Source: an uncultured Lentisphaerales bacterium
GTDB taxonomy: Bacteria > Verrucomicrobiota > Lentisphaeria > JABSQK01 > UBA12247
Direction: 5' to 3'
DNA: 64,000 bases
Assembly (NCBI GenBank): GCA_943788985.1
Contig: CALSSJ010000010.1
Span: forward strand, 1-64,000
Of the stretch, positions 1-62,532 are shown in pieces. The notes below the pieces were generated by a model, which did no database searches, had not been told where the DNA came from, and worked only from the letters and a program-made list of their open reading frames with translations. Numbering within the stretch: position 1 is the stretch's first letter; every line of letters begins with the position of its first letter. Made by a program: the position numbers and the translations under genes.

Positions 1-81
1 CCCGAATCGTCACTCTGTCGCGTGATGCCTACCACCGCAACGTCACCCTCGGGCAATCTGGAGACAACCTCGTGCTCCGGT

Positions 82-94
82 TGCGAACTCCGCA
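82..94 (+). repeat. Iterated motif TGCGAACTCCGCA, copy 1
   Basis: Exact 13-mer; encodes LRTP in the LamG-like ORF. Confidence 0.8.
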
Positions 95-375
95 CACCGG
101 CGACAATGGCGCCGAACCAGAAGTCACTTTTGGCACGCTGAAAGCGGGCACGCATCGGCATGTGGTGGTCAGCTATACGAACGGGGTACTAAGCTGCTAC
201 CAAGACGGCCAGCAGGTACTCTTCAGCGACCAGATCCGTGGCGACCTTTGCAACTAGGCCGAGTACGAGCTCGTATTCGGAGACGAGTGGCAGGACCCAC
301 GATATTGGCAAGTGACGATCAAGCGGGTCACAATGCTTCGCGAGGCACTTCAGCCAGCCGCCGCTCTAGCGCGCA

Positions 376-390
376 TTGCGAACTCCGCAA
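376..390 (+). repeat. Iterated motif TTGCGAACTCCGCAA, copy 2
   Basis: Exact 15-mer; arms extend to GCATTGCG/CGCAATGC. Confidence 0.9.
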
Positions 391-412
391 TGCCCGCTGA
401 ATTGCGAGAAGG

Positions 413-489
413 TGGTACCCCCAACCGGATTCGAACCGGTGTTACCAGGATGAGAACCTGGCGTCCTAGGCCGTCTAGACGATAGGGGC
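413..489 (-). tRNA. tRNA-Glu (anticodon CTC)
   Basis: Reverse complement GCCCCTATCGTCTAGACGGCCTAGGACGCCAGGTTCTCATCCTGGTAACACCGGTTCGAATCCGGTTGGGGGTACCA: cloverleaf, anticodon arm CCAGG-TTCTCAT-CCTGG, GTTCGAATC T-loop, encoded CCA. Confidence 0.97.
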
Positions 490-507
490 ATTCCACGCGA
501 AGCCGGT

Positions 508-536
508 ATCATAACCGCCTTCGCGTCACAAGACAA
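508..536 (-). promoter_or_regulatory. Putative sigma-70 promoter of tRNA-Glu
   Basis: TTGTCT-17 nt-TATGAT on the minus strand just upstream of the tRNA. Confidence 0.55.
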
Positions 537-1090
537 AACGCTTTCTTTCAGCCAGCCATATTTCGGTGCAGGTCTATCCAGGACATGCGCCGGCACGAAC
601 CGTACTCAACTATGGCCTTTTCATCAGCGGGGTGGTCGCCTTTATCGGGGTGTTCTCTTAACGCGGTTGGTGCCACCTACGAGTTTCAGTGAGGCCTAGC
701 CAGACGGTGGCAACTTCCCCTCTCTCCGGTAATTCGAAAGCATTTACATAGGCCCGGTGCGCGAGCGACGCGCTAGAACCGTCGGTGATGACGTCACTGC
801 GATTCCTGCAGCGGACCTACTTGCCAACCTGCGTCGTGAGATTTTGGGGTGACGGTTGATTTCGATCGGGGGGCGCACGCCGACGACCTTGCGGAACCCC
901 TATGCTGCACCGTGAATTGGAAAAAAAATAATTGGATCCTGTCTGTCTTTCCCTTCCTTCCAAGCTGTAGAATACGGGATTGTTGCCTGCAGCTTTCCAG
1001 AGGAAAGTGGAACCGTCGAGGCAACCTGCATGTCGGTCCTGCGCTTGATCTCTAAGCCCAACTGGGGGCGAATGATTTGACCCCCACTCA

Positions 1091-1114
1091 GGGCAGCCCG
1101 GAACCGGGCTGCCC
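1091..1114. terminator. GC-rich hairpin downstream of ahpC
   Basis: Perfect inverted repeat GGGCAGCCCGG-AA-CCGGGCTGCCC, 10 nt after the stop; no clear U-tract. Confidence 0.55.
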
Positions 1115-1124
1115 CGGCTTACCG

Positions 1125-3678: not shown

Positions 3679-3693
3679 TTGCGAACTCCGCAA
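3679..3693 (+). repeat. Iterated motif TTGCGAACTCCGCAA, copy 4
   Basis: Exact 15-mer, intergenic, just upstream of the yaaA start. Confidence 0.9.
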
Positions 3694-6791: not shown

Positions 6792-6809
6792 CATCGCCTT
6801 CCCAGGGAG

Positions 6810-6848
6810 GCTGGGGCCTCAGGCTAACTCAAAGCCGAGGGCCTCGGC
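6810..6848. terminator. Imperfect hairpin between convergent genes
   Basis: GCTGGGGCC...GGCCTCGGC with inner GGCT/AGCC pairing. Confidence 0.35.
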
Positions 6849-6979
6849 CAGCTGCTAGGCGAGCTATTTCGCTCGCTTCTTGCCAGCCACAGTGACGCAT
6901 GGCTTCAAGGCTGATCCCCCGAAAAACGACAGCACCAACCACAGCATGTCTTTCGCGGTCTGTCACTGAAGCTGCACCT

Positions 6980-9330
6980 TCATCGATGTGCACCTTCGAT
7001 CTCTTGCACGCGTTTCAAACTCCCGGCTGCCGCCTGGTGCGACGGATCAATCTTCAGCGCTCGCTCGAAGCAGTCGACCGCCTTGGCCCATTCCTTTTGC
7101 CTAGCCCAGATGTTGCCAAGGTTGGTGTACGTATTGGCGTCTGGTGCCAAAGCCAGCGCGGCCCGAAACGCCTCGCTGGCACCAGGTAAATCGCCCGTCT
7201 GCGTCAAGCAGAAGGCGTACTCACGGTGCACTCTCGGGTTTGCGGAGTCCGCAACCGTGAGTTGGCGAAGCGCGGGCAAGGCCGCCGCATAGGCCTTGGC
7301 CTGCAGGCTCTCCGCTACGATCGCTCGATAGATCGGCACTGCTATGCTGATCTCGGCCTGCGCGAGATGATCCAGGGCCTCGTCGGGCCGCCCCAGATCC
7401 GTCAGACAGCTCGCGATCCCCCTGAGCGCAACGGCATGGTCGGGCGCCTGCTTCAGGATGATCCGATACTCGTTAAGAGCACGCTCCAACTTCCCAGACT
7501 CGCGCAACGCCCGAGCGAGGTTCTGGCGGGCGGGGATCAGGTCCGGCTGGAGTTCCAGCGCCTTGGCAAACAGGGGCATTGCCTCGGACAGCTTCCCTGC
7601 CTTGGCGAAGGCCTGCCCTTGGTTCACATACACGTTTACCCATCCCGGCTTCAGAGCCAGGGCTCTGTCGTAGAGTCTGCTGGCTTCGGCTTGGTTGCCG
7701 CTGGCAGCCGTAAGGCCTGCCAGCTCCAGGGTGGCCTCGGCATGCGCGGGCTCCAGTTCTACGGCACGAGCGAGTGCGGACTCCGCAGCTTCCAGCCTCC
7801 CCGAGCGCTTGAGAGCCAGGCCCAGGTTGTACTGCGCTTCCGGCAGATTCTGGTTCAAGGCGACCGCGCGCTCAAGGTGCGGGAGCGCCTCTTCTAAGCG
7901 ATTGTCTTTCAGATACGCAGCTCCAAGTGCGGCGCGGGACTTAGCCCAGTCGGGGGCATGCTTGATCGACTCCACCAAGTGGCCGATGGCCTTTTCGCCT
8001 TCCCCGCGCAGAAACAGATGCCTGCCCAGCATTTCGTGAACCATGTGGTTGGTAGGCGAGTATTGAAGCGCATGCGCGGCCAACGTATCGGTGTTACGCC
8101 AGGTCCCCACTTGGCGGTGGGCCAGCAGCGCCAAAACAGCCACGGCAACTGCGGAGATCGCACCGACTGCGCCCCGCAGCTTAGGCCGCGATTCGACACA
8201 ATCGCGAAGGCCCCATGCGAGCGCGATAAACACGCCGATGAGCGGGACATAGGTATAGCGATCAGCCATCGCCTGCGCCCCCACCTGCACGATCCCGATC
8301 ACTGGCACCAACGTCCCCACGTACCAGAGCCAGCCAACCACAAGATACGGTTTGCGAACTCCGCAACGCACGGCTCCGTAGGATACGGCGATCAGCAGTC
8401 CGGGCCCGCGCCAATGATCTTGAGCATCGACAGCGAGGCTAAGGGGTGCGGGTAGTAATAGATCAGCCCGATCGGGGCGATGGTATGCCAGAGATACCCC
8501 ACGTAGGCCACGATTGCATTGGTGAAGCGGTGGCTGAGCGGAATCACATCGGTACTTGCCACCGCCTCGCCTTGGGCGATCACGACCAACGCACAAAACA
8601 CGATCGCCAGGCCCAGCAAGGGCAGCTTCTCGATCGCCAAGCGCCGAAACTCCGGCAGTGCCGACCGGCCCTGCGACAGCGACACTCGCTTCAGCGGCCA
8701 GATGTCCATCAGCAGCAGTACACACGGGACGGTGACCAGCATTTGCTTGGCGAGCAAGCCTAGGAGTAGACAGCCCGCGACGGCAAGATAGCGCAGGGTT
8801 CCAGGCTTCCGGGCATACCGCACGTACAGCCATAACGTCAGCATCCAGAGGACTGTGCTCAGCGTGTCCTTGCGTTCCGATACCCAGGCGACGGACTCGA
8901 CGTGCAGGGGATGAATCGCGAACAGTGTCGCGACCAGTAACGAGGGCCAAAGCTGACGCGTGGCGAGATGCAGGACGCGCAATAACAGACAGCTGGCCAG
9001 GATATGCATCAGCAGGTTGCTGAGGTGATGCCCGCCAGCATTAAGCCCGAACAGGGCGCAGTCAACCATGTGCGCCAGCCAGGTAAGCGGATGGTAGTTC
9101 GAGGAGTGAAACGCGGTAAAGGCCCAGCGAATCCCGGTGCCGGTCAGGCCGGCCTGCACCTGTGCGTTCTCAACGATGTAATCGACGTCGTCGAAAGCGA
9201 CAAACTCGAAGCTGTGCACCGGCCAGAACACGGCCAGTGTCAGCGTGATCAGGGCGATGTACACGGCCACGACGGTCGCCGTCGAGTCTACGGTAGGTGA
9301 CGCAGGCTTACCTGCAGAGGACTTCGCCAT
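6980..9330 (-). CDS. TMTC-like membrane protein (GT-C-like N-terminus plus TPR repeats), frameshifted near 8400-8408
   Basis: FDD.DYI, YHPLTWL, HPLHVESVAWVSERKD in ORF 8392-9330; ADRYTYVP followed by multiple TPRs in ORF 6980-8950. Confidence 0.85.
8352..8366 (+). repeat. Iterated motif TTGCGAACTCCGCAA, copy 5
   Basis: Exact 15-mer; encodes CGVRK on the minus strand. Confidence 0.9.
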
Positions 9331-9419
9331 CGATTCAAAAATCCGGCTAGAAGAAAGAGTGGCCCTACCTTAGCAGGCCGTGGCCAAATGCCACATCCAA
9401 ACCCAGATCGGGAACCGCG

Positions 9420-10362
9420 TTAAACGGAGGCGGGCGGGGTCTCAATGAGATCCCACATCGCTTCAGCGCCGCCATCCTGCATCGCGCCACGCATGATCTC
9501 CTTCCCAGCACGGTAGACATCCGCCATGCGTTTGGCGTCGCCTGACTTGGGCGCAGCTCGCCCTTCGAGCAAAGCCGCGAGACGGGCCTCGATCTCACAG
9601 AGCCCCAGTTCACGAGCAACCTCTGCCTGCAGCACCATGGCTTGTCCTTCGATCACCACATTGAACGGTGCCATCGGATCACGCTGCCCTGCCAGGCGCT
9701 CAGCGAGGCCAGTTTCTTGATCCTGGAGCGCGTGGACCAACTCATGCGCGAGAGTGAGGCGGATGACGTCATCCAGATGCGAGCTGTCCAGGCCTGCCTC
9801 TTCGAGCAGACGGTCTGAATTCTCTGGCAACAGGTAGATCTCGCCCGTACGAATCCCGTATTTGCCGATCACGTAGGGCATCATGCGTAAGGAAGACTGC
9901 ATGGCGGTGAGTTCCAGCAGATGATTGGTCAATGCATCGCTGCACTTTTCGCAGCCAGTTCCCAGCTCATCCGCGAGTAGGGCTCCGACCTCCAGCCAAT
10001 CAACCAGCTTCACCGTCGGATAGGTCGAAAAGCTCCGCCCAGAAACCTTCTCGACGGGCCGGGATGATCGAGACCATCCAGGCGGACGCATCTTGCTGGC
10101 TGAAGGGAAAGTCAGGACGTGGTTTTCTCGGGGGCGCGGCGGCCTTACGCAGGGCGCGCTGAATCATGGAGATGCCGACGATGCTGAAGAGAAACACGAC
10201 GACGCTCAGAAAGGTGAAGATGAGCAGACTGGAAGCCCGCTCTTGGAGCGAGACCGTGTTGCGGAAATACATGTTGAAGCCGACCATTGCGGTCAACATC
10301 ACGGTAATCAACAGTCCAACGCTCATGACCAGTGCAGCCAATCGATACGATGCTTTTCTCAT
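9420..10362 (-). CDS. Membrane-anchored putative zincin (HExxH) protein, frameshifted near 10056-10058
   Basis: Two N-terminal TM helices, then AHELVHALQDQ and EGQA. Removing one C joins the two ORFs as IIPAVEKVSGR. Confidence 0.65.
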
Positions 10363-10473
10363 TTTTGCCTACCCACGCGCGTTCACATCAAAGCCCTCTA
10401 TCTGGAGGACGCTCGGCAACGCAAAACTGCACGCACTTCTACTGAATTACCTTCCGACCGCGTAGAAAATGGG

Positions 10474-11367: not shown

Positions 11368-11368
11368 C

Positions 11369-12440: not shown

Positions 12441-12497
12441 CTTCTGCGTTCAGTATACGAAATATTGGCGCAGGTTGCAACCAATTTTGGCTTTGCG

Positions 12498-19122: not shown

Positions 19123-20487
19123 ATGATTGGCGAGGCCCCGTGGCGTGCGACTGTGCGCAGGTTGCTCGCCAATCGTCTTGCGACGATTGGTGGCAGCCTG
19201 GTCATGATCATGATGCTGGCCGTCGGCATTGGCCCGTGGTTCGTCCCGCATGATCCCTTCCTGCAGCGCGCCTGGCTCGGTGCCCTTCCTCCCGGTTCCG
19301 AGCACCCGCTCTGCAACGCTGAGAACCGCTTTCTCATCGGCAAGGCCCCCACCGGCCCGCCAGAGTTTGCGAACTCCGCAACCATCAAACTAAACACTAT
19401 TGAAGCGCGGACCGAGCGCTATCGCGCCAGCCTTCGCCGTGGCAAAGTGCGCAGCATCGTGCTTATGCAGGGCGCTCAGCGCACCGACTCGCTCCTCCTC
19501 GGCGATGCCGACCGCACCGCCATAGCCATCGCCGAAGACGGCAGTCGGCGCACTCTGCCCCAAGTCACCCTCCAGGCAGGCGAGCTCCCACCGCCCGGCG
19601 TCTTCGCCCCAGACAAGCGAGTCCTCGAGTTCGAGCTCGGCCTGCCGCCCGTGCACAGCGCCTGCACCATCGAACTTACCAACGGCCTTGTCACCCGCAT
19701 TCAGCAAGGCGACACCACCGTGGACTCCCTGACTCTGTTTGGCGATGCCATCGAAGGCGTCGAGCTCGATGGCACCACCCGCACGGTCAGGCACACGCTT
19801 GGAACCGATGAGAAAGGCCGAGACCTCCTGGCCCGCGTCCTCTTTGGCGGGCGAGTCTCGATCATGGTCGGCATCGTAGCCACCGCCGTCAGCCTGCTCA
19901 TCGGCGTCTGCTATGGGGCTACTGCCGGCTACTTTGGGGGGCGCATCGATCGCACCATGATGAGCGCTGTCGACATCCTTTACGCCGTCCCGTTCATGTT
20001 CATCGTCATTCTCTTGATGGTCATCTTCAGCCGCAGCCTGATCATGCTATTCATTGCCCTTGGGGCAGTCCAGTGGCTTACCATGTCGCGCATTGTCCGC
20101 GGCCAGGTCCTCGGCCTCAAAGAGATGGACTTTGTCGTTGCCGCCAAGATCAGCGGTGCCCGGACGCCGTCCATCATTTTCCAGCATCTCTTGCCCAATG
20201 CCATTGGCCCGGTTATCGTCTACGCCACACTAACCGTACCGGCCGTGATCCTCGAAGAGAGCTTTCTCTCGTTCATCGGGCTTTCCGTACAATACAATGG
20301 GCAGGCTCTCGACAGCTGGGGCGCTCTCGTCAAGCAAGGCGTGGACGCCTTTGGCTCCGGCGGCGACAACCTCTGGCTGCTGCTGTTCCCCTGTCTGGCC
20401 ATGGCCGCCACCCTGCTCGGGCTCAACGCCCTCGGCGACGGCCTCCGCGACTGCTTTGACCCCAAGCAAAACCGCTCCGATGCCTAG
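19123..20487 (+). CDS. Oligopeptide/dipeptide ABC transporter permease (OppC/DppC type) with a large extracytoplasmic insertion
   Basis: HTLGTDEKGRDLLAR, EAA-loop-like FVVAAKISGA, ESFLSFIG and GDGLRD motifs. Confidence 0.88.
   Translation: MIGEAPWRATVRRLLANRLATIGGSLVMIMMLAVGIGPWFVPHDPFLQRAWLGALPPGSEHPLCNAENRFLIGKAPTGPPEFANSATIKLNTIEARTERYRASLRRGKVRSIVLMQGAQRTDSLLLGDADRTAIAIAEDGSRRTLPQVTLQAGELPPPGVFAPDKRVLEFELGLPPVHSACTIELTNGLVTRIQQGDTTVDSLTLFGDAIEGVELDGTTRTVRHTLGTDEKGRDLLARVLFGGRVSIMVGIVATAVSLLIGVCYGATAGYFGGRIDRTMMSAVDILYAVPFMFIVILLMVIFSRSLIMLFIALGAVQWLTMSRIVRGQVLGLKEMDFVVAAKISGARTPSIIFQHLLPNAIGPVIVYATLTVPAVILEESFLSFIGLSVQYNGQALDSWGALVKQGVDAFGSGGDNLWLLLFPCLAMAATLLGLNALGDGLRDCFDPKQNRSDA
19367..19381 (+). 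repeat. Iterated motif TTGCGAACTCCGCAA, copy 6
   Basis: Exact 15-mer; encodes FANSA. Confidence 0.9.
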
Positions 20488-24011: not shown

Positions 24012-24125
24012 TATTACGTTCAGAATGATATATAATCTTCACTTATTTGATTCAATCCGATCCTTGTATCCGCCTGTTCGAGCCATATCGTATTTGGCTT
24101 CGACAGGCCCCAAATGGAATCAATA

Positions 24126-26792: not shown

Positions 26793-26916
26793 GCATAGTG
26801 CCTTCTGCTGACAGGGCGGTTAACGTCCGGGCAGCCCCGCAGAGAACGCGGCGGCGAAGCGAAACTGCCACTCTGCACAGGAGGACGTCGAACTTTGGAC
26901 GTTCACAACTTCGGTT

Positions 26917-30163: not shown

Positions 30164-32425
30164 ATGCCCAAAAGCACAGCAGATTTTATCGACCCCATGA
30201 TCGGGGCTATCACCGAGCACGAATCGACCTGGGCCGGACTGGGCAAGACCTATCCCGGCGCTTGGCTGCCCTCGGGCCTCGTCCAACTCGGACCCGACAC
30301 CATCACCGGCGGTGACAACGGCTCCGGCTACTCCGCCGGCCACGACTCGATCGAAGGCTTCAGCTTCACCCACATGAGCGGCATCGGCGCCTATGGCGAC
30401 CTCGGAAACCTGCTGGTCACCCCGACCACCGGCCCGCTCTACACCTACGGCGGCCTGCCCAATGAGATCCTAGACGAGACCTACCGCAGTCGCTTCAATG
30501 CCGACGACGAGACAGCCGAAGCTGGCTACTATGCCGTTGCTCTGGAAAACCAAGTGCACGCCGAAGCCACCTGCACCAACCGCGCTGGCATCCTGCGCTT
30601 TGCCTTTCCGGCTGACAGCCGCGCCCGCATTCAGCTCGATCTAGCCCGCCGTGTCGGTGGGCGCAGTCTCGAGCAATATGTGCGGCAGGTCGATAACCAA
30701 ACACTGGAAGGGTGGATGCGCTGTGGGCCCGAGGGCGGTGGCTGGCGTGGCGGCAACACCCCGCTTGCTTACACCGTCTACTTCTCGCTGCAATTCAGCC
30801 AGCCCATCGAGCGCTCTGGTGTCTGGTCTGTCGTCGTCCCCGAGGTCTGGCGCGGCGAATGGCCCGAGCGCATGTATGCCCAATGGAAAACTCCGGCCTA
30901 TATCGAAGCCATCCGCAATGCCACTATCGAGCCGTTCCCAGAATCCGGCGAGCACCGCGGCGAGCACATCGGCTACTACGCAGAGTGGCCCGAGGGCGTC
31001 ACCGAGCCACTGCTGGTCAAAGCCGGCATTTCCTACGTCAGCATCGACGGGGCGCGTGACAACCTGGCCGCCGAACTCGCACACTGGGATTTCGACTGCG
31101 TCCGCGCCGACGGCAAGGCTGCCTGGAACCACGCAGTCGGCGCCCTTGCCGATGTCACCGCCAGCGACGAGCAGCGCACCATTTTGCGGACTGCGCAATA
31201 CCGCACGCTGTGCGACCCGCGTTACTTCGCCGATGCCGATGGCAGCTATCCGACGCCAGACGGCGGCAGTAAGCGCAGCACCAGTTTTACCCGGCGGACC
31301 ATCTTCAGCGGCTGGGACGTCTTTCGCTCGCAGTTTCCCTGGCTGACTCTGGCTGCGCCCGACACCGTCAACGACACCATCTGTTCACTCATCGAAGTCG
31401 CCGAGAGCCGCGGTGGCGGTCTGCCCTGCTGGGAACTGCTCGGTTGCTACACCGGCTGCATGCTCGGCGATCCCGCGATCGTAGTCATCGTCGATGCCTA
31501 CATCAAAGGCATTCGCAACTATGACGTCGAGCGCGCCTACGCCGTCTGCCGGCAAACCGCCCTCGGCCCCAACACCACCCGCAAGGGCTCGGCCGAATAC
31601 AACGAACTCGGCTACGTTCCCGGCAACATCTCCATGACCCTCGAAAACTGCTATGCCGACTGGTGCATGGCCGTCTTCGCCGAGGCCCTTGGCAAGCACG
31701 AGGATGCCACGCTGTTCCGCAGTCGCACCGCCAACTACAAAAACCTCTACGACCCCGAAGTCGGCCTCATGCGGCCCAAGGACGAACACGGCAACTGGCT
31801 ACCCTGGGTCGGCAAGCTGCAAATGCACGGCAGCGGCTGCGTCGAGAGTAACTCACTCCAGCAGACCTTCTTCGTCCCGCATGACACCGACGGGCTGGTC
31901 AACCTCATGGGCGCAGAACGCTATCTCGCCACCTTGACCGAGCTGTTCGAGAAAACACCGGCCGGGGCAAACTGGACCGACTACTACAATCACCCCAACG
32001 AACCCGTCCACAGCCTGCCCTTCTTGTTCAACCGCATCGGCAAGCCAGCGCTGACTCAGAAATGGTCGCGTTGGGCAGCGAAGAGCTTCTACGGCACCGG
32101 CATCTTTGGCCTCAACGGCAACGAAGACGTCGGCCAAATGTCCGCTTGGTACGTCCTGGCTGCGATTGGCCTGCACCCCGTCTGCCCTGGCGACGGCACC
32201 TACGAACTCACCAGCCCCGTCGTCTCGCGTGCGACTCTGCGGCTCCACCCGGACTACCACACAGGAAGCAGCTTCACCATCGTCGCCGAGAACAACAACG
32301 ACGACAACATCTACATCCAGTCAGCCGTCCTCAATGGTCAGCCGCTGGACCGTTGCCAGTTACAATACGATGAAATCACCGCCGGCGGCGAACTCATCCT
32401 TACCATGGGAGCAAAACCAGTATGA
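30164..32425 (+). CDS. GH92 family glycoside hydrolase (alpha-mannosidase-like)
   Basis: PGA..P.GLVQLGPDT, GFSFTHMSG, FSGWDVFR, TLE..Y.D, NEP and GNEDVGQMSAWYV motifs. Confidence 0.93.
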   Translation: MPKSTADFIDPMIGAITEHESTWAGLGKTYPGAWLPSGLVQLGPDTITGGDNGSGYSAGHDSIEGFSFTHMSGIGAYGDLGNLLVTPTTGPLYTYGGLPNEILDETYRSRFNADDETAEAGYYAVALENQVHAEATCTNRAGILRFAFPADSRARIQLDLARRVGGRSLEQYVRQVDNQTLEGWMRCGPEGGGWRGGNTPLAYTVYFSLQFSQPIERSGVWSVVVPEVWRGEWPERMYAQWKTPAYIEAIRNATIEPFPESGEHRGEHIGYYAEWPEGVTEPLLVKAGISYVSIDGARDNLAAELAHWDFDCVRADGKAAWNHAVGALADVTASDEQRTILRTAQYRTLCDPRYFADADGSYPTPDGGSKRSTSFTRRTIFSGWDVFRSQFPWLTLAAPDTVNDTICSLIEVAESRGGGLPCWELLGCYTGCMLGDPAIVVIVDAYIKGIRNYDVERAYAVCRQTALGPNTTRKGSAEYNELGYVPGNISMTLENCYADWCMAVFAEALGKHEDATLFRSRTANYKNLYDPEVGLMRPKDEHGNWLPWVGKLQMHGSGCVESNSLQQTFFVPHDTDGLVNLMGAERYLATLTELFEKTPAGANWTDYYNHPNEPVHSLPFLFNRIGKPALTQKWSRWAAKSFYGTGIFGLNGNEDVGQMSAWYVLAAIGLHPVCPGDGTYELTSPVVSRATLRLHPDYHTGSSFTIVAENNNDDNIYIQSAVLNGQPLDRCQLQYDEITAGGELILTMGAKPV

Positions 32426-38370: not shown

Positions 38371-39959
38371 CCAAACGACCGAACATTCTGCTCATCATCA
38401 ACGACGACATGGGCTACTCTGACTTAGGCTGCTACGGTGGCGAAGCCCGCACGCCCAATCTGAATGCCTTGGCCGAGAATGGCCTGCGCTACACCCAGTT
38501 CTACAACACCGCCCGCTGTTGCCCGTCGCGCGCATCGATGCTCACCGGCCTCTACCCGCAGCAGGCAGACGTGGGCCACATGGTCGGCGACGACCAGATC
38601 GACGGCTACCTCGGGGACCTGAACCGCGACACCGTCACCATCGCCGAAGCGCTCGGCACCAGCGGTTACCGCAGCTACATGTGTGGCAAGTGGCATGTCA
38701 CCGGCCATATCGGCGCAGATGGGCCGAAGCACAACTGGCCGGCCAATCGCGGATTCGACGATTTCTACGGCATCATCACCGGCGCTGCGAATTACTGGAA
38801 TCCCCAGACGTTGACTCGAAACAACGAGCGCATCGCGCCCGAGCCAGGGCACTTCTTCACTGACCGCATTTCGGAGGAAGCCGTCCGCCAGATCAGCGAG
38901 CATTGTACTGACCACGCTGACACGCCCTTTTTCCAATACGTTGCCTACACCGCGCCCCACTGGCCCTTGCACGCGCATCCCGAAGACATTGCGGAGTACG
39001 CAGGTGCGTTCGACGCCGGCTGGGACACGCTCCGCGAAGAGCGCTTGGCCCGCATGGTCAAGATGGGCATCATCGACCGCCAGTGGCTGCTCACCGCCCG
39101 CGATCCCCGGGTTGCGGCTTGGGATGAGGCTGATCACAAAGAATGGCAAGCGGGCAGAATGGAAGTCTATGCCGCCCAACTCGACCGCATGGACCGCGGC
39201 ATTGGCACCATCCTGCAGTCCCTCAAGGACAACGGCCAGTGGGACAACACCCTCATTGTGTTCTTGGCCGACAACGGTGCTTGCGCCGAAGAACTCGGGC
39301 CCAAGATGGGCCAGGGAGTTCGCGAAGGCTCAGTCCCGTACGCCACCGCCCAGACCAGCGATGGCCGCGAGGTCCGCTTCGGCAACGATCCCGCGGTCAT
39401 GCCGGGCCCCGAAGACACCTACCAGAGCTGCGGTACGGCGTGGGCAAACGTCAGCAACACGCCCTTTCGGCTCTACAAGCATTGGGTGCACGAAGGCGGC
39501 ATTTCGACACCGTTCATCGCCCATTGGCCCGCCGGGATCGCCGCTCGGAATGAGCTTCGCGATCAACCCGCACAGCTGCCAGATATTATGGCCACCTTCC
39601 TCGACATTGCGGACACCGCCTATCCGGCCAGCCACAACGGTCGAACCATCAAGCCTCTGGAGGGCTTCAGCATCGTGCCAACTTTTGCGGACTCCGCACC
39701 GACTCGCGAGGTGCTGTACTGGGAGCACGAGGGCAACAAAGCAGTCCGCCGCGGAATCTGGAAGCTTGTCTGCCGCTATGGCCAAGACTGGGAGCTCTAC
39801 AACATGGCCGCAGACCGCAGCGAGACCCGCGATCTAGCCGTCACCCATCCCCGCATTGTGAGTGAGCTGACAGCTCTCCACGATGCCTGGGCCGAACGCT
39901 GCGGCGTCATGCCATGGGAGGCGCTGCAAGAGCATCGGCGCTGGCAAGAGCAGCACTGA
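38367..39959 (+). CDS. Arylsulfatase (no evident signal peptide)
   Basis: RPNIL..DDMG, CCPSR, GKWH, APHWPLHA and DNG motifs; ATGA overlap with GH2. Confidence 0.93.
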   Translation: MTKRPNILLIINDDMGYSDLGCYGGEARTPNLNALAENGLRYTQFYNTARCCPSRASMLTGLYPQQADVGHMVGDDQIDGYLGDLNRDTVTIAEALGTSGYRSYMCGKWHVTGHIGADGPKHNWPANRGFDDFYGIITGAANYWNPQTLTRNNERIAPEPGHFFTDRISEEAVRQISEHCTDHADTPFFQYVAYTAPHWPLHAHPEDIAEYAGAFDAGWDTLREERLARMVKMGIIDRQWLLTARDPRVAAWDEADHKEWQAGRMEVYAAQLDRMDRGIGTILQSLKDNGQWDNTLIVFLADNGACAEELGPKMGQGVREGSVPYATAQTSDGREVRFGNDPAVMPGPEDTYQSCGTAWANVSNTPFRLYKHWVHEGGISTPFIAHWPAGIAARNELRDQPAQLPDIMATFLDIADTAYPASHNGRTIKPLEGFSIVPTFADSAPTREVLYWEHEGNKAVRRGIWKLVCRYGQDWELYNMAADRSETRDLAVTHPRIVSELTALHDAWAERCGVMPWEALQEHRRWQEQH

Positions 39960-42693: not shown

Positions 42694-43386
42694 ATGGCGC
42701 AGAAAATTCTGGTAGTCGAGGATGAATCGGCGATTGCCGACACCATTCAGTATGCCTTGGCCACCGAAGGGTTTGACGTGACCGTCGTCGGAACTGGCAG
42801 CGCCGCGCGCGAAGCGCTGGCTGCTGCGCAGTTTGAGTTAGCAGTGCTGGATGTCGGCCTGCCGGACTGCAATGGCTTCGACCTCTTTCGCGAACTCCGC
42901 AGATCCTCCGAACTGCCGGTGGTCTTCCTGACCGCACGAAGCGAGGAGGTCGACCGCATTGTCGGCCTGGAGATCGGTGCCGATGACTACATGGCGAAGC
43001 CGTTCAGCCCCCGCGAATTGACGGCCCGCGTCCGTGCGATCCTCCGCCGTTGCGCCAGCGCCAAGGATCCAGAGCCAGAAGTTGCGGAGTCCGCACCAGG
43101 CTTCTCGCACTGCGAGTCAGCGTGCGAAATTCGCTATCACGGTGAATTGCTGCGGCTGTCCCGCGGGGAGTATCGCCTACTGACTGCCATGCTGTCGCGA
43201 CCTGGCTGGGTCCTCTCGCGCGAGCAACTGCTCGACCTTGCCTGGGACGATCCCATGGCGAGCGAGCCGCGCACGGTCGATACGCACATCAAGACCATCC
43301 GCGCCAAGCTGCGCAAGATCACGCCAGACCAGTGCCCGATCATCACGCACCACAGCATGGGCTACTCGCTCAGTGTTGACCCATGA
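42694..43386 (+). CDS. creB: OmpR-family response regulator, CreB-like
   Basis: Receiver domain plus winged helix; RTVDTHIKTIRAKL and I.TH...GYSL are CreB-like. Confidence 0.75.
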   Translation: MAQKILVVEDESAIADTIQYALATEGFDVTVVGTGSAAREALAAAQFELAVLDVGLPDCNGFDLFRELRRSSELPVVFLTARSEEVDRIVGLEIGADDYMAKPFSPRELTARVRAILRRCASAKDPEPEVAESAPGFSHCESACEIRYHGELLRLSRGEYRLLTAMLSRPGWVLSREQLLDLAWDDPMASEPRTVDTHIKTIRAKLRKITPDQCPIITHHSMGYSLSVDP

Positions 43387-52676: not shown

Positions 52677-53156
52677 GTGCACTGTAGACTAATCGGTTTG
52701 TGTCTTGTGGTCCTGGCGTGTGGTTGCGAACAGCGCAAACCTGCCGCGCTTGACGTACCCACACCGCGTGCTGACCAGCGCACCCAGCCGCCCGATCCTC
52801 CGCCCGTAGAGCGCCCCAAGCCGCGCCTTTCGCTGAACGCTCAGCGGATTGAGAATTTCATTGTCCACGCCCACCAGATTGGCTATTTGCAGCCGGGAAA
52901 GATGGCCAGCTTTGAACTGGAGCTATTCGACCAAAAAACCTGGCCGGTGTCACCGGTGGCTTGGGTCGGGAGAGAAACGACCGACAAGCGCTGGCGTCGG
53001 CCAAGTCGCAACGACACTGGCCGCGTACGTCTTTTTAAGATCCCCGTCCCCAGCCCGATTCCCGCGGACAGCAGGCTCTGGGTGATGTTTCCAGATGAAG
53101 ACGCCACCGAGGACGCGCCCGCGGCGAGTGCCTCGTTCAAACTTCGCAGGGAATAG
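52677..53156 (+). CDS. Hypothetical lipoprotein
   Basis: Hydrophobic stretch ending LACGC, then a Pro-rich linker; start uncertain. Confidence 0.55.
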   Translation: MHCRLIGLCLVVLACGCEQRKPAALDVPTPRADQRTQPPDPPPVERPKPRLSLNAQRIENFIVHAHQIGYLQPGKMASFELELFDQKTWPVSPVAWVGRETTDKRWRRPSRNDTGRVRLFKIPVPSPIPADSRLWVMFPDEDATEDAPAASASFKLRRE

Positions 53157-54108: not shown

Positions 54109-54782
54109 CCACGCTACTTGGTCGTTCCTGCCCGCTAATTGCTGGGGTTGTTTCAACCCCCGAGGCATTGGCCGCGCTCGACGTGGAGTCCGCCGCGGCC
54201 TGCGACTTAATCGAGCTTCGCTTTGATCAACTGGCAATGCCCCTTGCAGCCTTTCGCGCAGAGTGCGCGCGCGTCCGCACGCTGGTCCCTATCCTGCTAA
54301 CCCACCGCTGGTCTGCGGAAGGCGGTGGGGCAGACGATGACCAGGCCCGCTGGGCCGTCTATGAGGCATTGGTGCAGGACGTCGACGCATTCGATATTGA
54401 GTTGGCGAGCAGCCTCGCGGCCAGAGTAAGCGCCTTGGCGGTTGCCAATGGCGTGACCCTAATTCTCAGCTTTCATGATTTCCAAGGCCTGCCCGAAATT
54501 TGCGAACTCCGCAAAAAGATCGCCCGCATGCGCGAGTTAGGCGCAGTCCCCAAGCTGGCCGTGACCGTCGAAACCGACGAGCAAGTTCGCGAACTCGAGG
54601 CCCTTTTGCGCGACTGCGGCTCAGAGCCAACCTGCGTGATCGGGATGGGCACCGCCGGCCAGCAGACGCGCTTTGGCTTTCCCCGCCTGGGTTCCTGCCT
54701 GACCTACGGCTACATCGACCGACCGAGTGCCCCCGGCCAGCCAAGCTGTTGCGAACTCCGCAACGCCCTTAAGCCCGGCTGA
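54105..54782 (+). CDS. aroD: Type I 3-dehydroquinate dehydratase
   Basis: ELRFD, EGG, DIEL, SFHDF, PKLA, MG..G..TR and APGQ motifs. Confidence 0.88.
   Translation: MTTLLGRSCPLIAGVVSTPEALAALDVESAAACDLIELRFDQLAMPLAAFRAECARVRTLVPILLTHRWSAEGGGADDDQARWAVYEALVQDVDAFDIELASSLAARVSALAVANGVTLILSFHDFQGLPEICELRKKIARMRELGAVPKLAVTVETDEQVRELEALLRDCGSEPTCVIGMGTAGQQTRFGFPRLGSCLTYGYIDRPSAPGQPSCCELRNALKPG
54500..54514 (+). repeat. Iterated motif TTGCGAACTCCGCAA, copy 7
   Basis: Exact 15-mer; encodes CELRK in aroD. Confidence 0.9.
54749..54763 (+). repeat. Iterated motif TTGCGAACTCCGCAA, copy 8
   Basis: Exact 15-mer; encodes CELRN in aroD. Confidence 0.9.
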
Positions 54783-57605: not shown

Positions 57606-59585
57606 TCAGTCCAGAATTGTGTCCAAGGGGCCAAGCCCGGGGTTTACATCCTGTGGGGCTTGGCGGCTAAAGAACCAATCGAAGGATTTGATCGGTGCGG
57701 TGTCCGCAGCACTGGGGATCGCCCGCTCGCCAGTTCGGTTCCACGTACGAATCACATTGATCGCATGGCTGTGTGCATGGGCGACTTCCATGTTGTACTC
57801 TAGGTCACCGAGCACGCGTCGCGCAGCAGCCGCACTGATCAACTTTCCGCTCCCCTCGAAGCGTCCAAGCTGATCCTGATAGCGCGAGAGAATCACAAGG
57901 TGGAGCATGTTGAAGCCCACCAAGTAGGTGGCCACGTGTTCGGGATCATAGCTGCGTTGGAGGAAGCGCCGGATCTCGGCAGAGATATTCTGGAGTTGGC
58001 CATCGTTTACGCCCTTGTGACGACTCAGCAGATCGTCGATCCTTTCGGCAAGTTGGGGCGGGACCGCGAGCGCGCGCAGGTAGCGCACGACTTCCTTGCG
58101 GAGCGCTTCCATGGCCTCCGGCTGAGTCTTGCCCGAGCGCGCCAACATTTCAGCCGTGATGAAGTACTCGGCGAGCTTGCTGCCGAGGACAAAGGACAGG
58201 ACGCGCGGCGGCTCGTTCTGCAGGGTGCGGATCTCACTGGTGATCGCCTCCAGCTTCTTGACGACTTCGCTGAGGTAGCCATGCTCAGAGTTCGCAGTTA
58301 GCATCCGGGAGACCGGGCCAAAATCCAAGTCTGCCATCTCGTTCTGCATCAAGCCAAAGCGGGTAGTCAACTCGCGCGCCCAGAGGTTGTTATCGCCAGC
58401 GGTCATCAGCGAGATCGGGCTGCGATACTGCCTGCGAAACCGCTCCATGGCCCGGCTCGTTCCCAAGGCATAGCCAAGCGTGCCCTGGTGGCGATGATAA
58501 TGCAGCTTCCAGTTCTGCCCGTCGCTCCGGGCAATGTAGAAGGCGTCGCGTACCCGCGCGCCATTGTCGATTGCTTCAAGCTGCTCGAACGGACTCGCTA
58601 GCTCCCCGGCGCACATGGTGACACCGAGAACGCTCGCCGGATCGGAGACCGTCAGCTCAGCTGCGATCGAAAAGACGTGCGGTTCGCGCATGTCTAAGCC
58701 GGTGATGGCATAGTCCTTGATGCGTACCGGCGTACGCTCAAAAGCTGCCGCATCCACATGCACCCCCTCCAACTCCACCAGGCTGTCACGATGCGCCGCC
58801 AAGTTGCCGTTGGACCAGGCGGAGAGGATGCGATCCAGGGTGGCGACGGCCATCAGCGCCCGGGAGATCCGGTCCTGCCCCGTTGTCAGAAAGGTGGGAG
58901 CTAGCACCTCCATCGGCCCACGTGCCTCGGCCTCCTCAAGCTTCCTGGCGATCTCCGGTAATACCATGTCAGGCCGAATACCTAGGGAGGGGCGTTGCTG
59001 TAAGCGAGCGAGCAAAGCCACGATCTCAATGGTCGCGGGCAACCCGGGCTGCACCTTCTTGGTCGTCTCCTGCCACTCTCTGCGGGCTCTGGCGTGCTCA
59101 AGCAGGACGCCGAGTGGCTCCAACGCGGTCGGGGCCACAAGCTGAAGCCGCTTGCCATCGCTGCGCCACGTCAGCCGGCCAAGTTGTGAGGCGGTTTTGC
59201 TGTAAGCTGCCAGCATCGTCGGCGACAGGCGGTCATCGCGCACCAGATAGTTAAAAGCCGTCGATGCCGGGTCCGACAACGTGAGCCGGTAGTCGGCCGC
59301 CCACGTTTCTGCATCCACCTGACGCACCTGTAGCACGGCGATGTCGTGGATCAACAGCGGCCCGCCTACGGCATCGCCCAAGCCGAGCGCAGAATAGGTC
59401 TGCAGGTAGCCTTTGTCGTTGTTGGCAATCGCCAGAAACAACCCGTGCGCTTGGGTCGCCAACGTCCGTTCGATGGTGCTTGCGGCATCCTCCGCCTGTG
59501 GTGCCTCATCACGGCCACAGCCGCAAACCAGAAGCACCGCGATCATAACGGACAGGAGTAAGAATTGCGGAGATTTCCCGGTCAC
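57606..59585 (-). CDS. Hypothetical lipoprotein with an internal duplication
   Basis: Lipobox-like LVCGC; two related segments containing LT(L/V)SDPAS. Confidence 0.7.
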   Translation of the reverse strand: MTGKSPQFLLLSVMIAVLLVCGCGRDEAPQAEDAASTIERTLATQAHGLFLAIANNDKGYLQTYSALGLGDAVGGPLLIHDIAVLQVRQVDAETWAADYRLTLSDPASTAFNYLVRDDRLSPTMLAAYSKTASQLGRLTWRSDGKRLQLVAPTALEPLGVLLEHARARREWQETTKKVQPGLPATIEIVALLARLQQRPSLGIRPDMVLPEIARKLEEAEARGPMEVLAPTFLTTGQDRISRALMAVATLDRILSAWSNGNLAAHRDSLVELEGVHVDAAAFERTPVRIKDYAITGLDMREPHVFSIAAELTVSDPASVLGVTMCAGELASPFEQLEAIDNGARVRDAFYIARSDGQNWKLHYHRHQGTLGYALGTSRAMERFRRQYRSPISLMTAGDNNLWARELTTRFGLMQNEMADLDFGPVSRMLTANSEHGYLSEVVKKLEAITSEIRTLQNEPPRVLSFVLGSKLAEYFITAEMLARSGKTQPEAMEALRKEVVRYLRALAVPPQLAERIDDLLSRHKGVNDGQLQNISAEIRRFLQRSYDPEHVATYLVGFNMLHLVILSRYQDQLGRFEGSGKLISAAAARRVLGDLEYNMEVAHAHSHAINVIRTWNRTGERAIPSAADTAPIKSFDWFFSRQAPQDVNPGLGPLDTILD

Positions 59586-59663
59586 ATATACCTCATCACT
59601 GGGCGGCTTCGCTGGATCATTATACCCACGGCAAAACCTGCGCCATGGGCACCCTTAGAACGC

Positions 59664-60809
59664 CTACTTTACGTACATTCCCAGCACACGCTTGGTGTTT
59701 ACAAGTTTCTCTTTCTCCGGATAGTTCGGATATTTGACGACAAACTCGTCGATCAGCTTAATTGCCTTGGCGGCATTTGCACCGCGCTGGTCTTTGAGAT
59801 TCTTGTTTTTGACGTTTTTGATCACGGCCTTGATCGCTGCGTAGGCGCTGTCTGCATCGCTCGCTGGGGCTGCCGCAGGCGCTGCTGGGGCTACTGCTGT
59901 CGCTGGCGTTGTCGCCGCTGCAGGCGCAGGCTTCTTATTGCCGCTCGAGGAGAGCCACGCAACGCCAAGGGCGAGAATCACAACCGCACCCACGATCAGG
60001 ACAATGAACATCTTCTTGGACTTCTTCTCGTCCTCAGACGGTTCGGTGGTCGCGTGCGTGGCGTGAATTGAATGCGGCCGGGATGCAGTCGTTCTTGCGC
60101 CGGGCTTCGTGGCAGTGCGACTCCTGGCCTTTACTCGCGCACTCTTGCTCCTGCCACCAGCCGCTGCGCCCTTACCGGCACCCGCTTTAGCCCTGGCTAC
60201 CGCTTTAGCCTTGGCCACGGCCTTAGTCCGTGCCTCCGCGCCAGGATCTGTCTCCGCGCTGTCATCTTCAGCCCCAATCAGCGGTTCTTTAGCGGCGGGC
60301 TTCTTCTTCACGGTCCCAGTCGCAGCAAGCTTTTTCTTTGCGGCCGTACCGCTGCCTGGTTTTCTTCTTGCCCCCGTAGCGGCGGGCTTCTTCCTTGCGG
60401 ATCCTGTAGGACCTGGCTTCTTCGCCTTCGGTGCGGGCGCAATTGCGGTGGCTTGCTCCTCTTCTTTTTCTTCCTCAGCGAGGGCAGGCGCTGCCTCCTC
60501 ATCCGAATCTAGAAAGTCGCTAGGAAGATCCAGCTCAGCAAGAGCTTCGGCCTCTATCTGGCGTAAAGTCTCTTCATCCAGCTCAAAATCAGCGTCTCCG
60601 CCCCCAGAAGCGGCGTCCTCTTCCACAGCATCCGACGCCGGTTCCGCATCATTGCCGTCCAGATCCAAATCGCTGAGGTCGATAGAATCCAAATCAGCGT
60701 CATCCAAATCTAGGCCGAATTCATCCAATCCGAGCTCGGCAGCAGCCTGCCGCTTGGCTTCCGCTTCGATCTCTCGAAGGGTCTCAGGGTCTAGTTCGTA
60801 GTCACTCAT
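59664..60809 (-). CDS. Low-complexity single-pass membrane protein (acidic N-terminus, Lys/Ala-rich middle)
   Basis: Composition, one TM helix, small C-terminal helical domain. Confidence 0.75.
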   Translation of the reverse strand: MSDYELDPETLREIEAEAKRQAAAELGLDEFGLDLDDADLDSIDLSDLDLDGNDAEPASDAVEEDAASGGGDADFELDEETLRQIEAEALAELDLPSDFLDSDEEAAPALAEEEKEEEQATAIAPAPKAKKPGPTGSARKKPAATGARRKPGSGTAAKKKLAATGTVKKKPAAKEPLIGAEDDSAETDPGAEARTKAVAKAKAVARAKAGAGKGAAAGGRSKSARVKARSRTATKPGARTTASRPHSIHATHATTEPSEDEKKSKKMFIVLIVGAVVILALGVAWLSSSGNKKPAPAAATTPATAVAPAAPAAAPASDADSAYAAIKAVIKNVKNKNLKDQRGANAAKAIKLIDEFVVKYPNYPEKEKLVNTKRVLGMYVK

Positions 60810-60981
60810 GGTACTTCCATAATCGAGATTCGATTCGTTACCTATAGCTCGAATCGGGCCGATTGACACTGGAGTTTACCGATGCTACACAGGGCCTTCC
60901 CGCGCTGGTGATCTTTGCAGGGCTCGCGGGGTCTACCATGTTCAACACTTCAGTACCACCTATTCACAGTAGGAGCCCACC

Positions 60982-61647
60982 GTGATCGGGATTCCTCAGC
61001 CCTCAGCCAAAGATTTGCGCTTTACGATCTTCGGCATTCGCGTGCGCGTCAACATCCTGTTTTGGGTGATCGCATTGCTGTTCGCCTGGGATATTGGCCG
61101 GGGTGATCAACGGGGCCTGCTCGTTGGCTTGTTCGTCGTCTTCATTTCCATCCTTGGCCATGAACTTGGGCACGCGCTGGTGTCAAAAAAATACGGGGGC
61201 TGTCCGCGTGAGATCGTGCTGCACATCATGGGCGGCCATGCCATCTCGGAGCGCCAGCTACCGAGGAACAAGCGACTGCTCGGGATCGCCGCTGGGCCGG
61301 GCTTTAACCTTGCCCTTGCCCTCATCGCCTTCTTGATCTATCCGTATGTACAAGGCACCAATCTGGCAAAAATCTCGCAATTCACATTCTGGGTGAACTT
61401 GGTCTGGGGCGTGTTCAACTTGGCTCCGGTGCTTCCCCTAGACGGCGGCATGTTGGTTGAGACCTTTCTCGAAGGCCAGGTCTCGAATCCCAGCTATCGG
61501 GCGTTGCGCGTCAGCGTTTACGCGGGCATCGTCTGCGCCATCCTAGCGCTGTGGGCTGGCTTTGTCTTTGGCACGATGATTTATGGTATGATGGCTTATA
61601 TGGCACACCAACAAACACGCCTGCCGCCAAGACCCGCTTGGCGTTAA
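60982..61647 (+). CDS. Site-2 protease (M50 family)
   Basis: HELGH, AAGP..N and FNLAPVLPLDGG motifs. Confidence 0.9.
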   Translation: MIGIPQPSAKDLRFTIFGIRVRVNILFWVIALLFAWDIGRGDQRGLLVGLFVVFISILGHELGHALVSKKYGGCPREIVLHIMGGHAISERQLPRNKRLLGIAAGPGFNLALALIAFLIYPYVQGTNLAKISQFTFWVNLVWGVFNLAPVLPLDGGMLVETFLEGQVSNPSYRALRVSVYAGIVCAILALWAGFVFGTMIYGMMAYMAHQQTRLPPRPAWR

Positions 61648-61660
61648 GAAGCCCCGACTT

Positions 61661-61675
61661 TTGCGAACTCCGCAA
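61661..61675 (+). repeat. Iterated motif TTGCGAACTCCGCAA, copy 9
   Basis: Exact 15-mer, intergenic. Confidence 0.9.
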
Positions 61676-61698
61676 CTCCCACACTCTTCGAGACCCAC

Positions 61699-61881
61699 AT
61701 GACGCGTCGCCTTCTCCTATTTCTGGCTGTAGCCCTCTTGGTATCTGGTTGCGTAGTTCGCACCACGCGCCGCACACCGACCATTGACGAACTCGGCAAC
61801 AATCGCGCTAGAATCGGACCGGATGGTCGTATTGAGGAATCAGAGATCATCTGGCTCTGGGGATCAGAGAAGAAGAAGTGA
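61699..61881 (+). CDS. Small lipoprotein
   Basis: MTRR, hydrophobic core and LVSGC lipobox; overlaps the next gene (GTGA). Confidence 0.65.
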   Translation: MTRRLLLFLAVALLVSGCVVRTTRRTPTIDELGNNRARIGPDGRIEESEIIWLWGSEKKK

Positions 61882-62492
61882 CCCACCCGCCCACCGACCC
61901 GGATCTTCCCATCCGCCAGGCTGTCCTAGTGGCCATCGACTTCGAGGCGACTGGCAGTGTCCCGGGCTATGACAATGAGCCGTGGCAAATCGGTATGGTC
62001 CGCATGCGCGAGGGCTGCGTCGAGATCTCTGACATCTTCGAGTCGTACCTCCAAGTCGGTGAGCGCCCGTTCAATCCCTACGCGCCGGGCAATCACCATG
62101 CCTTGCGCGACACACTTGCCGCCGCACCGACCCTTTCCTCCTTGTGGGGGGAGCTTGGACGGCCTTGGCTCTCTGGCCCCTTGGTCGCCCATAACGCTGG
62201 CACCGAGCGGGGCCTATTGCAACCCGTGGCCCCGTTGCATGACTTTGGCCCCTGGCTGGACACCTTGCGGCTGACGCGGCTGGCCTACCCGGACCTGGCC
62301 TCGCACGCATTGCAGGATGTCATCGACGCACTCGGGCTGGCGGACAGGCTGGCAGAGCTATGCCCAGGCAGGTCCGCTCACGACGCCCTTTACGATGCCG
62401 TTGGCTCCGCGCTTATTCTGGAGCAGCTTCTCGCCCACCCTGCCTGGAAGCAGCTTACCTTTCGCCAGGCTGCCGCCCGCTGGAAACGTTAG
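61878..62492 (+). CDS. DEDDh 3'-5' exonuclease
   Basis: IDFEATG, VAHNA, DTL and HDALYDA motifs. Confidence 0.88.
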   Translation: MTHPPTDPDLPIRQAVLVAIDFEATGSVPGYDNEPWQIGMVRMREGCVEISDIFESYLQVGERPFNPYAPGNHHALRDTLAAAPTLSSLWGELGRPWLSGPLVAHNAGTERGLLQPVAPLHDFGPWLDTLRLTRLAYPDLASHALQDVIDALGLADRLAELCPGRSAHDALYDAVGSALILEQLLAHPAWKQLTFRQAAARWKR

Positions 62493-62517
62493 CTGCCTGT
62501 CGCCCAGACGATCCGTG

Positions 62518-62532
62518 TTGCGGAGTTCGCAA
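62518..62532 (-). repeat. Iterated motif TTGCGAACTCCGCAA, copy 10 (reverse orientation)
   Basis: TTGCGGAGTTCGCAA on the plus strand, intergenic. Confidence 0.9.

Follow-up and report, generated by a model that had tools for sequence, protein, structure and literature searches.

A strictly spaced bipartite palindrome, TTGCG-N5-CGCAA, iterated through a Lentisphaerales genome and its relatives

Motif sites in the window

The window analyzed here, 64,000 nucleotides in length, comprises positions 1–64000 of contig C10 of an uncultured Lentisphaerales bacterium (G000, hereafter the source genome; C numbers denote its contigs). The genes that could be named via NCBIfam include tgt, yaaA, hom, cimA, valS, groEL, dnaK, and rpsA as well as many sulfatases and glycosidases, and within and between genes lies a recurrent quasi-palindromic 15-mer, TTGCGAACTCCGCAA, which an initial annotation had singled out as a candidate genome-wide DNA signal. 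The 15-mer occurs eight times in the window and zero times in 100 dinucleotide-preserving shuffles. All eight copies are found where they had been placed (376, 3679, 8352, 19367, 54500, 54749, and 61661 on the + strand, and 62518 on the − strand). The 13-base core claimed at 82 and 1810 matches exactly at both positions, 10 exact cores being present in the window overall, and the near-variants are likewise all present (7241, 7775, 8150, 31185, 38990, 39686, 42889, 43083, 52725, and 57696). At a tolerance of up to two mismatches the window yields 35 rows, whereas shuffled sequences average 2.99 and reach 9 at most. Individual sites are as follows.

81..95, +: exact 13-mer core (the 15-mer ends in C)
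376..390, +: exact 15-mer TTGCGAACTCCGCAA
1809..1823, +: exact 13-mer core within tgt, read as CGVR on the gene strand
3679..3693, +: exact 15-mer between the divergent genes yaaA and hom
7241..7253, no strand assigned: variant TGCGGASTCCGCA, the fully palindromic form, in a TPR gene
7775..7787, no strand assigned: variant TGCGGASTCCGCA, TPR gene
8150..8162, −: variant TGCGATCTCCGCA, with an AT half-site
8352..8366, +: exact 15-mer, TPR gene, read as CGVR
19367..19381, +: exact 15-mer, OppC-like permease gene, read as F-ANSA-T
31185..31197, no strand assigned: two-mismatch variant, glycoside hydrolase (GH) family 92 gene
38990..39002, −: one-mismatch variant, sulfatase gene
39686..39698, no strand assigned: variant TGCGGASTCCGCA, sulfatase gene
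42889..42901, +: one-mismatch variant with a CGCG arm, response-regulator gene
43083..43095, no strand assigned: variant TGCGGASTCCGCA, response-regulator gene
52724..52738, +: both arms intact, spacer AACAG
54500..54514, +: exact 15-mer, AroD-like gene, read as CELR
54749..54763, +: exact 15-mer, AroD-like gene, read as CELR
57696..57708, −: two-mismatch variant
61661..61675, +: exact 15-mer, 14 bases past the stop of open reading frame (ORF) 60982–61647
61750..61762, −: one-mismatch variant
62518..62532, −: exact 15-mer between ORFs 61878–62492 and 62544–

The five peptide readings proposed earlier (LRTP, ANSA, CELR, AEFA, and CGVR) agree with a site-by-site reading of the frames. CGVR, an antisense phase, is found in tgt and the TPR gene, ANSA in the OppC-like gene, and CELR twice in the AroD-like gene; near the start of the window, open frames carry LRTP at 82 and ANSA at 377. 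Five of the 10 exact copies fall outside the listed window genes.

Positions 24114–39959 are occupied by three sulfatase genes, the GH92 gene, a GH2-like β-glucuronidase/galactosidase gene, and a large glycosidase-like ORF, and are adjoined by a regulator of the GntR/periplasmic-binding type (22863–24011). This cluster contains near-variants of the motif only, with zero exact copies.

Genome-wide excess and architecture of the word

The source genome (4.58 Mb in 48 unordered contigs, 58.3% GC, 83.6% complete; its GroEL is 76–77% identical to proteins of Verrucomicrobiota metagenome-assembled genomes) contains the exact 13-mer 424 times, 217 and 207 by strand. Markov models of orders 1–5 predict 0.23–1.41 copies, and a model of order 7 predicts 47. 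When all 15-mers are ranked by frequency, ranks 1–36 are versions of the motif without exception. The degenerate word TTGCGRASTYCGCAA (TTGCG-RASTY-CGCAA) is matched with at most two mismatches at 1,599 sites (380, 600, and 619 at zero, one, and two mismatches, respectively), compared with 30 for the reversed word, and the resulting density of about one site per 3 kb is the same in genes and spacers. The 9:1 strand bias seen in the window is absent genome-wide (217 versus 207), and the asymmetric variant tracks local GC skew only weakly (234 versus 190).

Two repeat arrays were encountered in these counts. At C2:110464–111281, five motif copies lie 201–202 bases apart in near-identical repeats that correspond to a 67-codon tandem domain, and they add only a few to the genome total. 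At C10:313783–327000, a 336-base unit is repeated in tandem about 39 times and presumably encodes a giant repeat protein; this array supplies the next commonest 15-mers after the motif and is compositionally the most atypical part of the genome.

The excess originates at the level of DNA. When genes are called by a crude self-trained procedure (3,034 genes, 79% coding), coding sequences take in 705 of the 850 motif-family copies (83%), with no intergenic enrichment, whereas 20 within-gene shuffles of synonymous codons, which keep every protein intact, retain a mean of 12.15 copies (range 5–18). Motif-encoded tetrapeptides are in large excess over their reversed counterparts (AEFA 184 versus AFEA 19, ANSA 127 versus ASNA 31, AESA 187 versus ASEA 30), whereas control tetrapeptides are near parity (AELA 134, ALEA 122); the motif has altered proteins, with tetrapeptide frequencies shifted up to tenfold. 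The contention that selection acts on the DNA rather than on protein is upheld by the use of all frames, both orientations, and spacers, by the outcome of the codon shuffle, and by the distorted tetrapeptides. Selection or drive acts on DNA, not on protein or RNA.

A protein motif might be suspected from the Ala-x-x-Ala phase, which holds 61% of the coding AACTC-type copies. This preference is explained by the tolerable codons of that phase (GCG and GCA), and copies are also found in the two remaining phases, in either orientation, and between genes. A peptide motif or an RNA hairpin is excluded by the use of all phases together with the near balance of sense (154) and antisense (188) copies. 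Elements of the repetitive extragenic palindromic (REP) or miniature inverted-repeat transposable element (MITE) kind, with shared flanks, a longer unit, and mostly extragenic placement, do not describe the word either, 83% of its sites being in coding sequences. The flanks of the 424 genomic copies carry no information beyond ±2 bases, as expected from the earlier claim of unshared flanks, and a mobile element is therefore excluded.

An independent metagenome contig matches the source genome at 99.82% identity over 21,977 bases, with 31 single nucleotide polymorphisms (SNPs) and one 8-base indel, and leaves all 12 sites in that stretch unchanged. An assembly artefact is therefore excluded, and the same arms recur in other genomes. 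A metagenome scan for closer relatives returned only this strain; since it is 99.8% identical and no SNP hits a site, this comparison has no power to test site conservation. All of these alternatives (a motif at the protein or RNA level, a REP- or MITE-like element, an assembly artefact) can be considered refuted, the probability left to them being negligible. In the IMG/VR collection, the exact 15-mer occurs once in each of 60 contigs and twice or more in none, which by a rough estimate is about the level of chance.

The word is a bipartite palindrome with a fixed gap. In the source genome 594 pairs of the arms TTGCG and CGCAA are separated by five bases, and each other gap from 0 to 12 is seen only 4–14 times (reversed control, 2–10); in the first 400 kb of the relative G025 the arms occur 38 times at gap 5 and 0–1 times at other gaps. 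In the source genome the gap itself reads R-A-S-T-Y, with per-position matches in 571, 500, 547, 504, and 564 of the 594 copies and at all five positions in 380. Nothing sets the dominant AACTC form apart: it results when the half-site variants TTGCGAA and TTGCGGA are paired with each other (the heterozygous case), and these variants assort close to independently (424 mixed, 239 GA/GA, and 109 AA/AA pairings). Among 2,269 perfect half-sites with center, the second half is present at zero, one, or two mismatches in 760, 577, and 243 cases (1,580 together). Lone halves are no commoner than the control (about 690 versus 775), and the whole palindrome is therefore the unit. One-base deviations affect the outermost base in 345 of 577 cases, and core deviations are dominated by transitions, C-to-T and G-to-A being commonest.

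With the arms exactly five bases apart, their centers lie about 10 bases, or one helical turn, apart, as would suit a symmetric dimer that contacts successive major grooves. In nine cases the start of one site lies exactly 16 bases from that of the next (for example C10:142618/142634 and C15:102315/102331), such that the two 15-mers abut with one base between and hence use different reading frames; these pairs may hint at cooperative binding.

This geometry invites comparison with operator boxes. The NnrR box of α-proteobacteria, bound by a CRP/FNR-family regulator, has the consensus ctTTGcg-N4-cgCAAag (PMC1274295), and its five-base arms are identical to those found here. The motif could accordingly be imagined as the operator of an ordinary transcription factor, for instance of the CRP/FNR type, with a greatly expanded regulon. 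The location of the sites largely refutes this. Sites are distributed evenly along genes, 83% of them intragenic, and in spacers, whether tandem, divergent, or convergent, their numbers scale with length, with no surplus at divergent promoters; they are therefore not promoter or terminator elements. The N4 spacing is at background (11 copies in the source genome, 0 in 400 kb of G025). A search of the source genome for the CRP/FNR helix-turn-helix (HTH) returned two weak PF13545 matches, both to GntR-type sugar regulators, and no member of the family. An NnrR-like reader was rejected on these grounds of spacing and family absence, and the operator explanation as a whole is very improbable.

Distribution, conservation, and chromosomal position

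The arms TTGCG-N5-CGCAA were counted in 401 genomes of the phylum, among which the source genome is the sole member of its family. They are common to at least nine families of the class Lentisphaeria. Copy numbers are listed below by family (f labels).

Family of the source genome: 594 copies, reversed control 9
f9: 364 (G018), 216 (G022), and 469 (G025) copies
f15: 75–365 copies in seven genomes
f8: 185 copies
f16: 140 copies
f12: 75 and 70 copies
f18: 76 copies
f19: 43 copies
f3, in the order of the source genome: 103 and 56 copies, controls 6 and 7

In f9, f15, f8, f16, f12, f18, and f19 the reversed controls number 0–7, and the arms are enriched 10- to 180-fold over them. Within the same sample, families f7, f6, f13, f5, f4, and f2 and genomes outside the class are at control level, with no more than 25 copies. 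The spacer differs between lineages as a set of dialects: G018 has mostly TTGCGG-N3-CCGCAA, G025 is nearly random, and f3 has R...Y. G025 has 41% GC, compared with 58% in the source genome, and its first 400 kb carry 38 sites and one control; enrichment at N5 in such a genome excludes a compositional explanation. A conserved, sequence-specific reader would be the simplest account of arms shared across families.

Conservation of individual sites was examined between sister species. A 400-kb portion of G025 was aligned to 339 kb of its congener G034 (alignable blocks about 75% identical), and seven G025 sites fell in blocks of at least 400 bases. All ten arm bases are kept at five of the seven; one site has a single outer change and one is lost. 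By comparison, all ten positions are kept in 7.86% of 55,131 gapped windows and in seven of 113 control words of the form NNNCG-N5-CGNNN, which gives P(≥5 of 7) = 5.5e-5. In the five kept sites, six of 25 spacer bases differ, the background rate. In this lineage the arms are therefore constrained and the spacer is free.

The contigs of the source genome cannot be ordered, and chromosomal position was sampled in the near-complete G025, with 57 windows of 20 kb on two contigs of 2.81 and 2.65 Mb. The sampled windows contain 108 full sites, 209 TGCG-N5-CGCA cores, and six controls. GC skew changes sign at about 1.55 and 2.7 Mb on the first contig (G025 C1) and at about 1.33 and 2.57 Mb on the second (C2), and the eight windows beside these four switches hold 3–8 cores each, like the others (sample mean 3.7). 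The motif is thus spread evenly over the chromosome. The initial annotation had named matS-, Noc-, and SlmA-like patterns alongside uptake or HIP-like ones; the uniform density speaks against the former and fits an uptake or HIP-like word or a general nucleoid protein. Each of the two G025 contigs has its own pair of skew changes, like two circular replicons of similar size, and motif density is equal on both.

Known region-marking sites, namely matS (read by MatP), the Noc- and SlmA-binding sites, parS, and the RacA ram sites, are 12–16-base palindromes that are read by dimers and are sometimes intragenic; they number in the tens and are confined to or excluded from particular chromosome regions. 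The present word differs from them in sequence, in its roughly 600–1,600 sites, and in its even run past the four skew switches, with neither terminus clustering nor terminus exclusion in the G025 windows.

The main rival to the explanation favored below is that the sites are bound by an abundant nucleoid-associated or chromosome-organizing dimer and that selection on chromosome structure preserves them, with no part played by uptake. The palindromic and strictly spaced geometry fits a dimer, sites are conserved in position between G025 and G034, and local clustering, including the nine pairs 16 bases apart, would suit cooperative binding. For HIP1, the highly iterated palindrome of cyanobacteria, selection and periodicity have been analyzed and a nucleoid or chromosome-organizing role of this kind was proposed by Xu et al. 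(2018; PMC5861425). Against it stands the lack in G025 of the terminus patterns on which the matS/MatP, Noc, and SlmA models are built, as does the far larger number of sites than the tens used by those systems. Selection on any single site would be tiny, yet tetrapeptides are shifted up to tenfold, which a per-site drive explains more easily. No regular or periodic spacing was found either: the coefficient of variation (CV) of the gaps is 0.71 in G025, 1.13 in G034, and 1.03–1.52 on six contigs of the source genome. We consider a purely structural role rather unlikely, though deserving of serious weight.

Gaps below 300 bases are twice as frequent as expected in the source genome, and 28 gaps exceed 16 kb where 5.8 would be expected. 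The largest desert, C12:1–86632, has zero sites, 55% GC, and atypical tetranucleotide use. Of its roughly 48 genes almost all share a strand, and the products include sulfatases, glycosidases of families GH20, GH29, GH78, and GH95, a DDE transposase, and a sialate esterase-like protein; the stretch is probably an island of recent acquisition that serves to degrade sulfated glycans. A further motif-free stretch of 28.8 kb contains a decayed type I restriction locus (C36:35500–43000; positions 5530–13012 of locus L157) with two frameshifted hsdM genes, a 122-residue half hsdS, and several hsdR fragments. Deserts of foreign appearance are what would be expected if sites build up the longer a sequence has resided in the lineage. 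As a practical marker, the word could assist in binning metagenomic contigs of these lineages, and regions that lack it have the look of horizontal acquisitions.

Candidate readers and possible function

As claimed in the initial annotation, no described site matches the word in the literature searched; the motif strings were not found there, and no such word was reported in Lentisphaerae. Its closest analog in several respects is HIP1 (GCGATCGC), an uninterrupted 8-mer within which two methyltransferase sites lie and whose function has been open for three decades. According to Elhai, one-base deviations from HIP1 are reportedly concentrated at its ends, and a methylation-linked mismatch-repair model is said to have been proposed for HIP1. 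Like HIP1 and the alternate cyanobacterial palindromes, the present word is a GC-rich palindrome in hundreds-fold excess, far beyond what Markov and codon-aware models predict, both within genes and in spacers; it is confined to a lineage with patchy exceptions, its sites are kept between species (five of seven in G025 versus G034), and its one-base deviations lie at the ends. Unlike HIP1, it is bipartite, with 5 + 5 bases, an exact 5-base gap, 15–17 bases in all, and a lineage-varying spacer; it has no associated methyltransferase that could be found, and it is rarer, at about one site per 3–10 kb. Rodriguez-Cruz et al. (2026; PMC13756078) describe HIP1 as correlated with competence and pilus proteins, discuss methylation-dependent transformation, and advance an uptake-signal hypothesis. 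The architecture seen here is new in being bipartite, with a fixed gap, arms that stay constant, and spacers that vary by lineage, and no methyltransferase partner was detectable.

The DNA uptake sequences (DUS) of Neisseriaceae and the uptake signal sequences (USS) of Pasteurellaceae are asymmetric, contiguous 9–12-mers that occur about once per kb and have a proven uptake bias. With these as generally described the word shares a mostly intragenic, genome-wide distribution, preferred frames, an imprint on the proteome, dialects, and scarcity in foreign-looking islands. Chi and the FtsK orienting polar sequences (KOPS) are short, contiguous, asymmetric words, strongly strand-skewed with replication; Chi has a comparable density of about one per 3–10 kb, but the present word is palindromic and the skew of its asymmetric variant is weak (217 versus 207 genome-wide, and 234 versus 190 with GC skew).

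The explanation that we favor, tentatively and with less than even confidence, is a lineage-wide self-DNA word of the HIP1 or uptake-sequence kind that is read by a symmetric dimer and marks kin DNA for uptake or recombination. The two 5–6-base arms, TTGCG(R) and (Y)CGCAA, exactly five bases apart, would be read as duplex DNA by a symmetric, probably homodimeric, sequence-specific protein, and this reader would be conserved across much of the class. A per-site pressure would create and keep sites wherever proteins tolerate them; this pressure could be direct selection, or kin DNA could be taken up preferentially and then recombined. In the dialect of the source genome, the reader or a partner may also constrain the spacer to R-A-S-T-Y, the spacer being free in other families. 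The original suggestion of a binding site for a dimeric protein or an uptake signal thus survives in part: the N5 gap and the assortment of half-sites fit a dimer, whereas matS-, Noc-, and SlmA-like roles are disfavored.

Several observations weigh against a role in uptake or kin recognition. No reader was identified. ComEC and PilM are each present in 72 of 74 class genomes, motif-rich and motif-poor alike, such that competence genes, as distinct from the DUS/USS case, do not track the motif. In the source genome DprA and PilM are present, ComEC was not found in an assembly that is 83.6% complete, and HHH_3 occurs only in a 668-residue ORF. We know of no natural transformation in the class Lentisphaeria. 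Known uptake words are asymmetric and contiguous, whereas this motif is a symmetric, bipartite palindrome, and uptake sequences are rather evenly spaced, whereas sites in the source genome are clustered (CV 1.03–1.52) and those in its relatives are inconsistent (0.71 and 1.13). The conservation sample is small, seven sites in a relative rather than in the source genome. At family-level distance, only one of 41 f9 sites that fall on orthologous codons of the source genome has all ten arm bases there (C17:126671), and sites therefore turn over.

A second long ComEC-like ORF (930–1270 residues, 930–1244 for those listed here) beside the ordinary comEC was seen, among the 74 genomes, only in the motif-rich families f3, f8, and f15 (G011:C31, G005:C166, G017:C192, G251:C141, G201:C21, G274:C343, and G013:C375). 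It was not seen in f9, f12, f16, or the source genome. An autoregulated reader gene beside clusters of sites was also considered and rejected, the clusters all lying within ordinary genes.

The word could also have no function of its own and have arisen as a side effect of biased, sequence-specific repair or mutation that converts near-matches to the consensus, in the manner of the model that Elhai is said to have proposed for HIP1. The concentration of one-base deviations at the outermost base (345 of 577) is the pattern reported for HIP1, and a benefit-free drive would explain both the accumulation of sites at the expense of proteins and their upkeep. Against this, searches for Vsr and for N6_N4 and N6 methyltransferases together with a regex screen for methyltransferase motifs revealed no Vsr or N6_N4 methyltransferase in the source genome, which at 83.6% completeness does not prove their absence, and its N6_Mtase matches are only frameshifted pieces beside the half hsdS and hsdR fragments of the broken type I system. 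Its sole C5 methyltransferase gene adjoins an HNH nuclease gene and is without an orthologue in other motif-rich genomes; C5 homologues at E ≤ 1e-15 occur in 18 of the 74 class genomes but in just five of 25 motif-rich ones, with 0 of 8 in f9 and 0 of 5 in f3. The cognate orphan methyltransferase that Elhai's rule would demand for such a word was not found, and no methyltransferase link was seen in the source genome or among the 74 genomes. Moreover, C-to-T and G-to-A changes are the commonest core variants, and a T:G-correcting system would deplete exactly these. A repair by-product is accordingly judged improbable.

The self-DNA reading has a wider form, in which much of Lentisphaeria shares a hitherto undescribed, methylation-independent system of kin-DNA recognition: a conserved dimer would bind TTGCG-N5-CGCAA, and the spacer dialects could set barriers to or preferences in exchange. 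This is possible, though doubtful. If it holds, no earlier uptake or self-recognition signal would have been both bipartite and palindromic, and the word would offer a tractable second system for HIP-type words, HIP1, DUS, and USS being among the strongest DNA-level signals known. A long bipartite word with a strict gap would require a sequence-specific dimer as its reader, constant arms with family-specific spacers would constitute natural specificity variants, and close relatives that lack the motif allow gene content to be compared. In apparently needing no cognate methyltransferase, the motif also departs from HIP1 as currently pictured.

A minor observation concerns the G025 sequence used in these comparisons. 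An element of about 1.9 kb at G025 C1:187394–189280 is present in many copies at 92–93% identity in G028 and G034, with further copies at about 70%, and is presumably an insertion sequence common to the genus.

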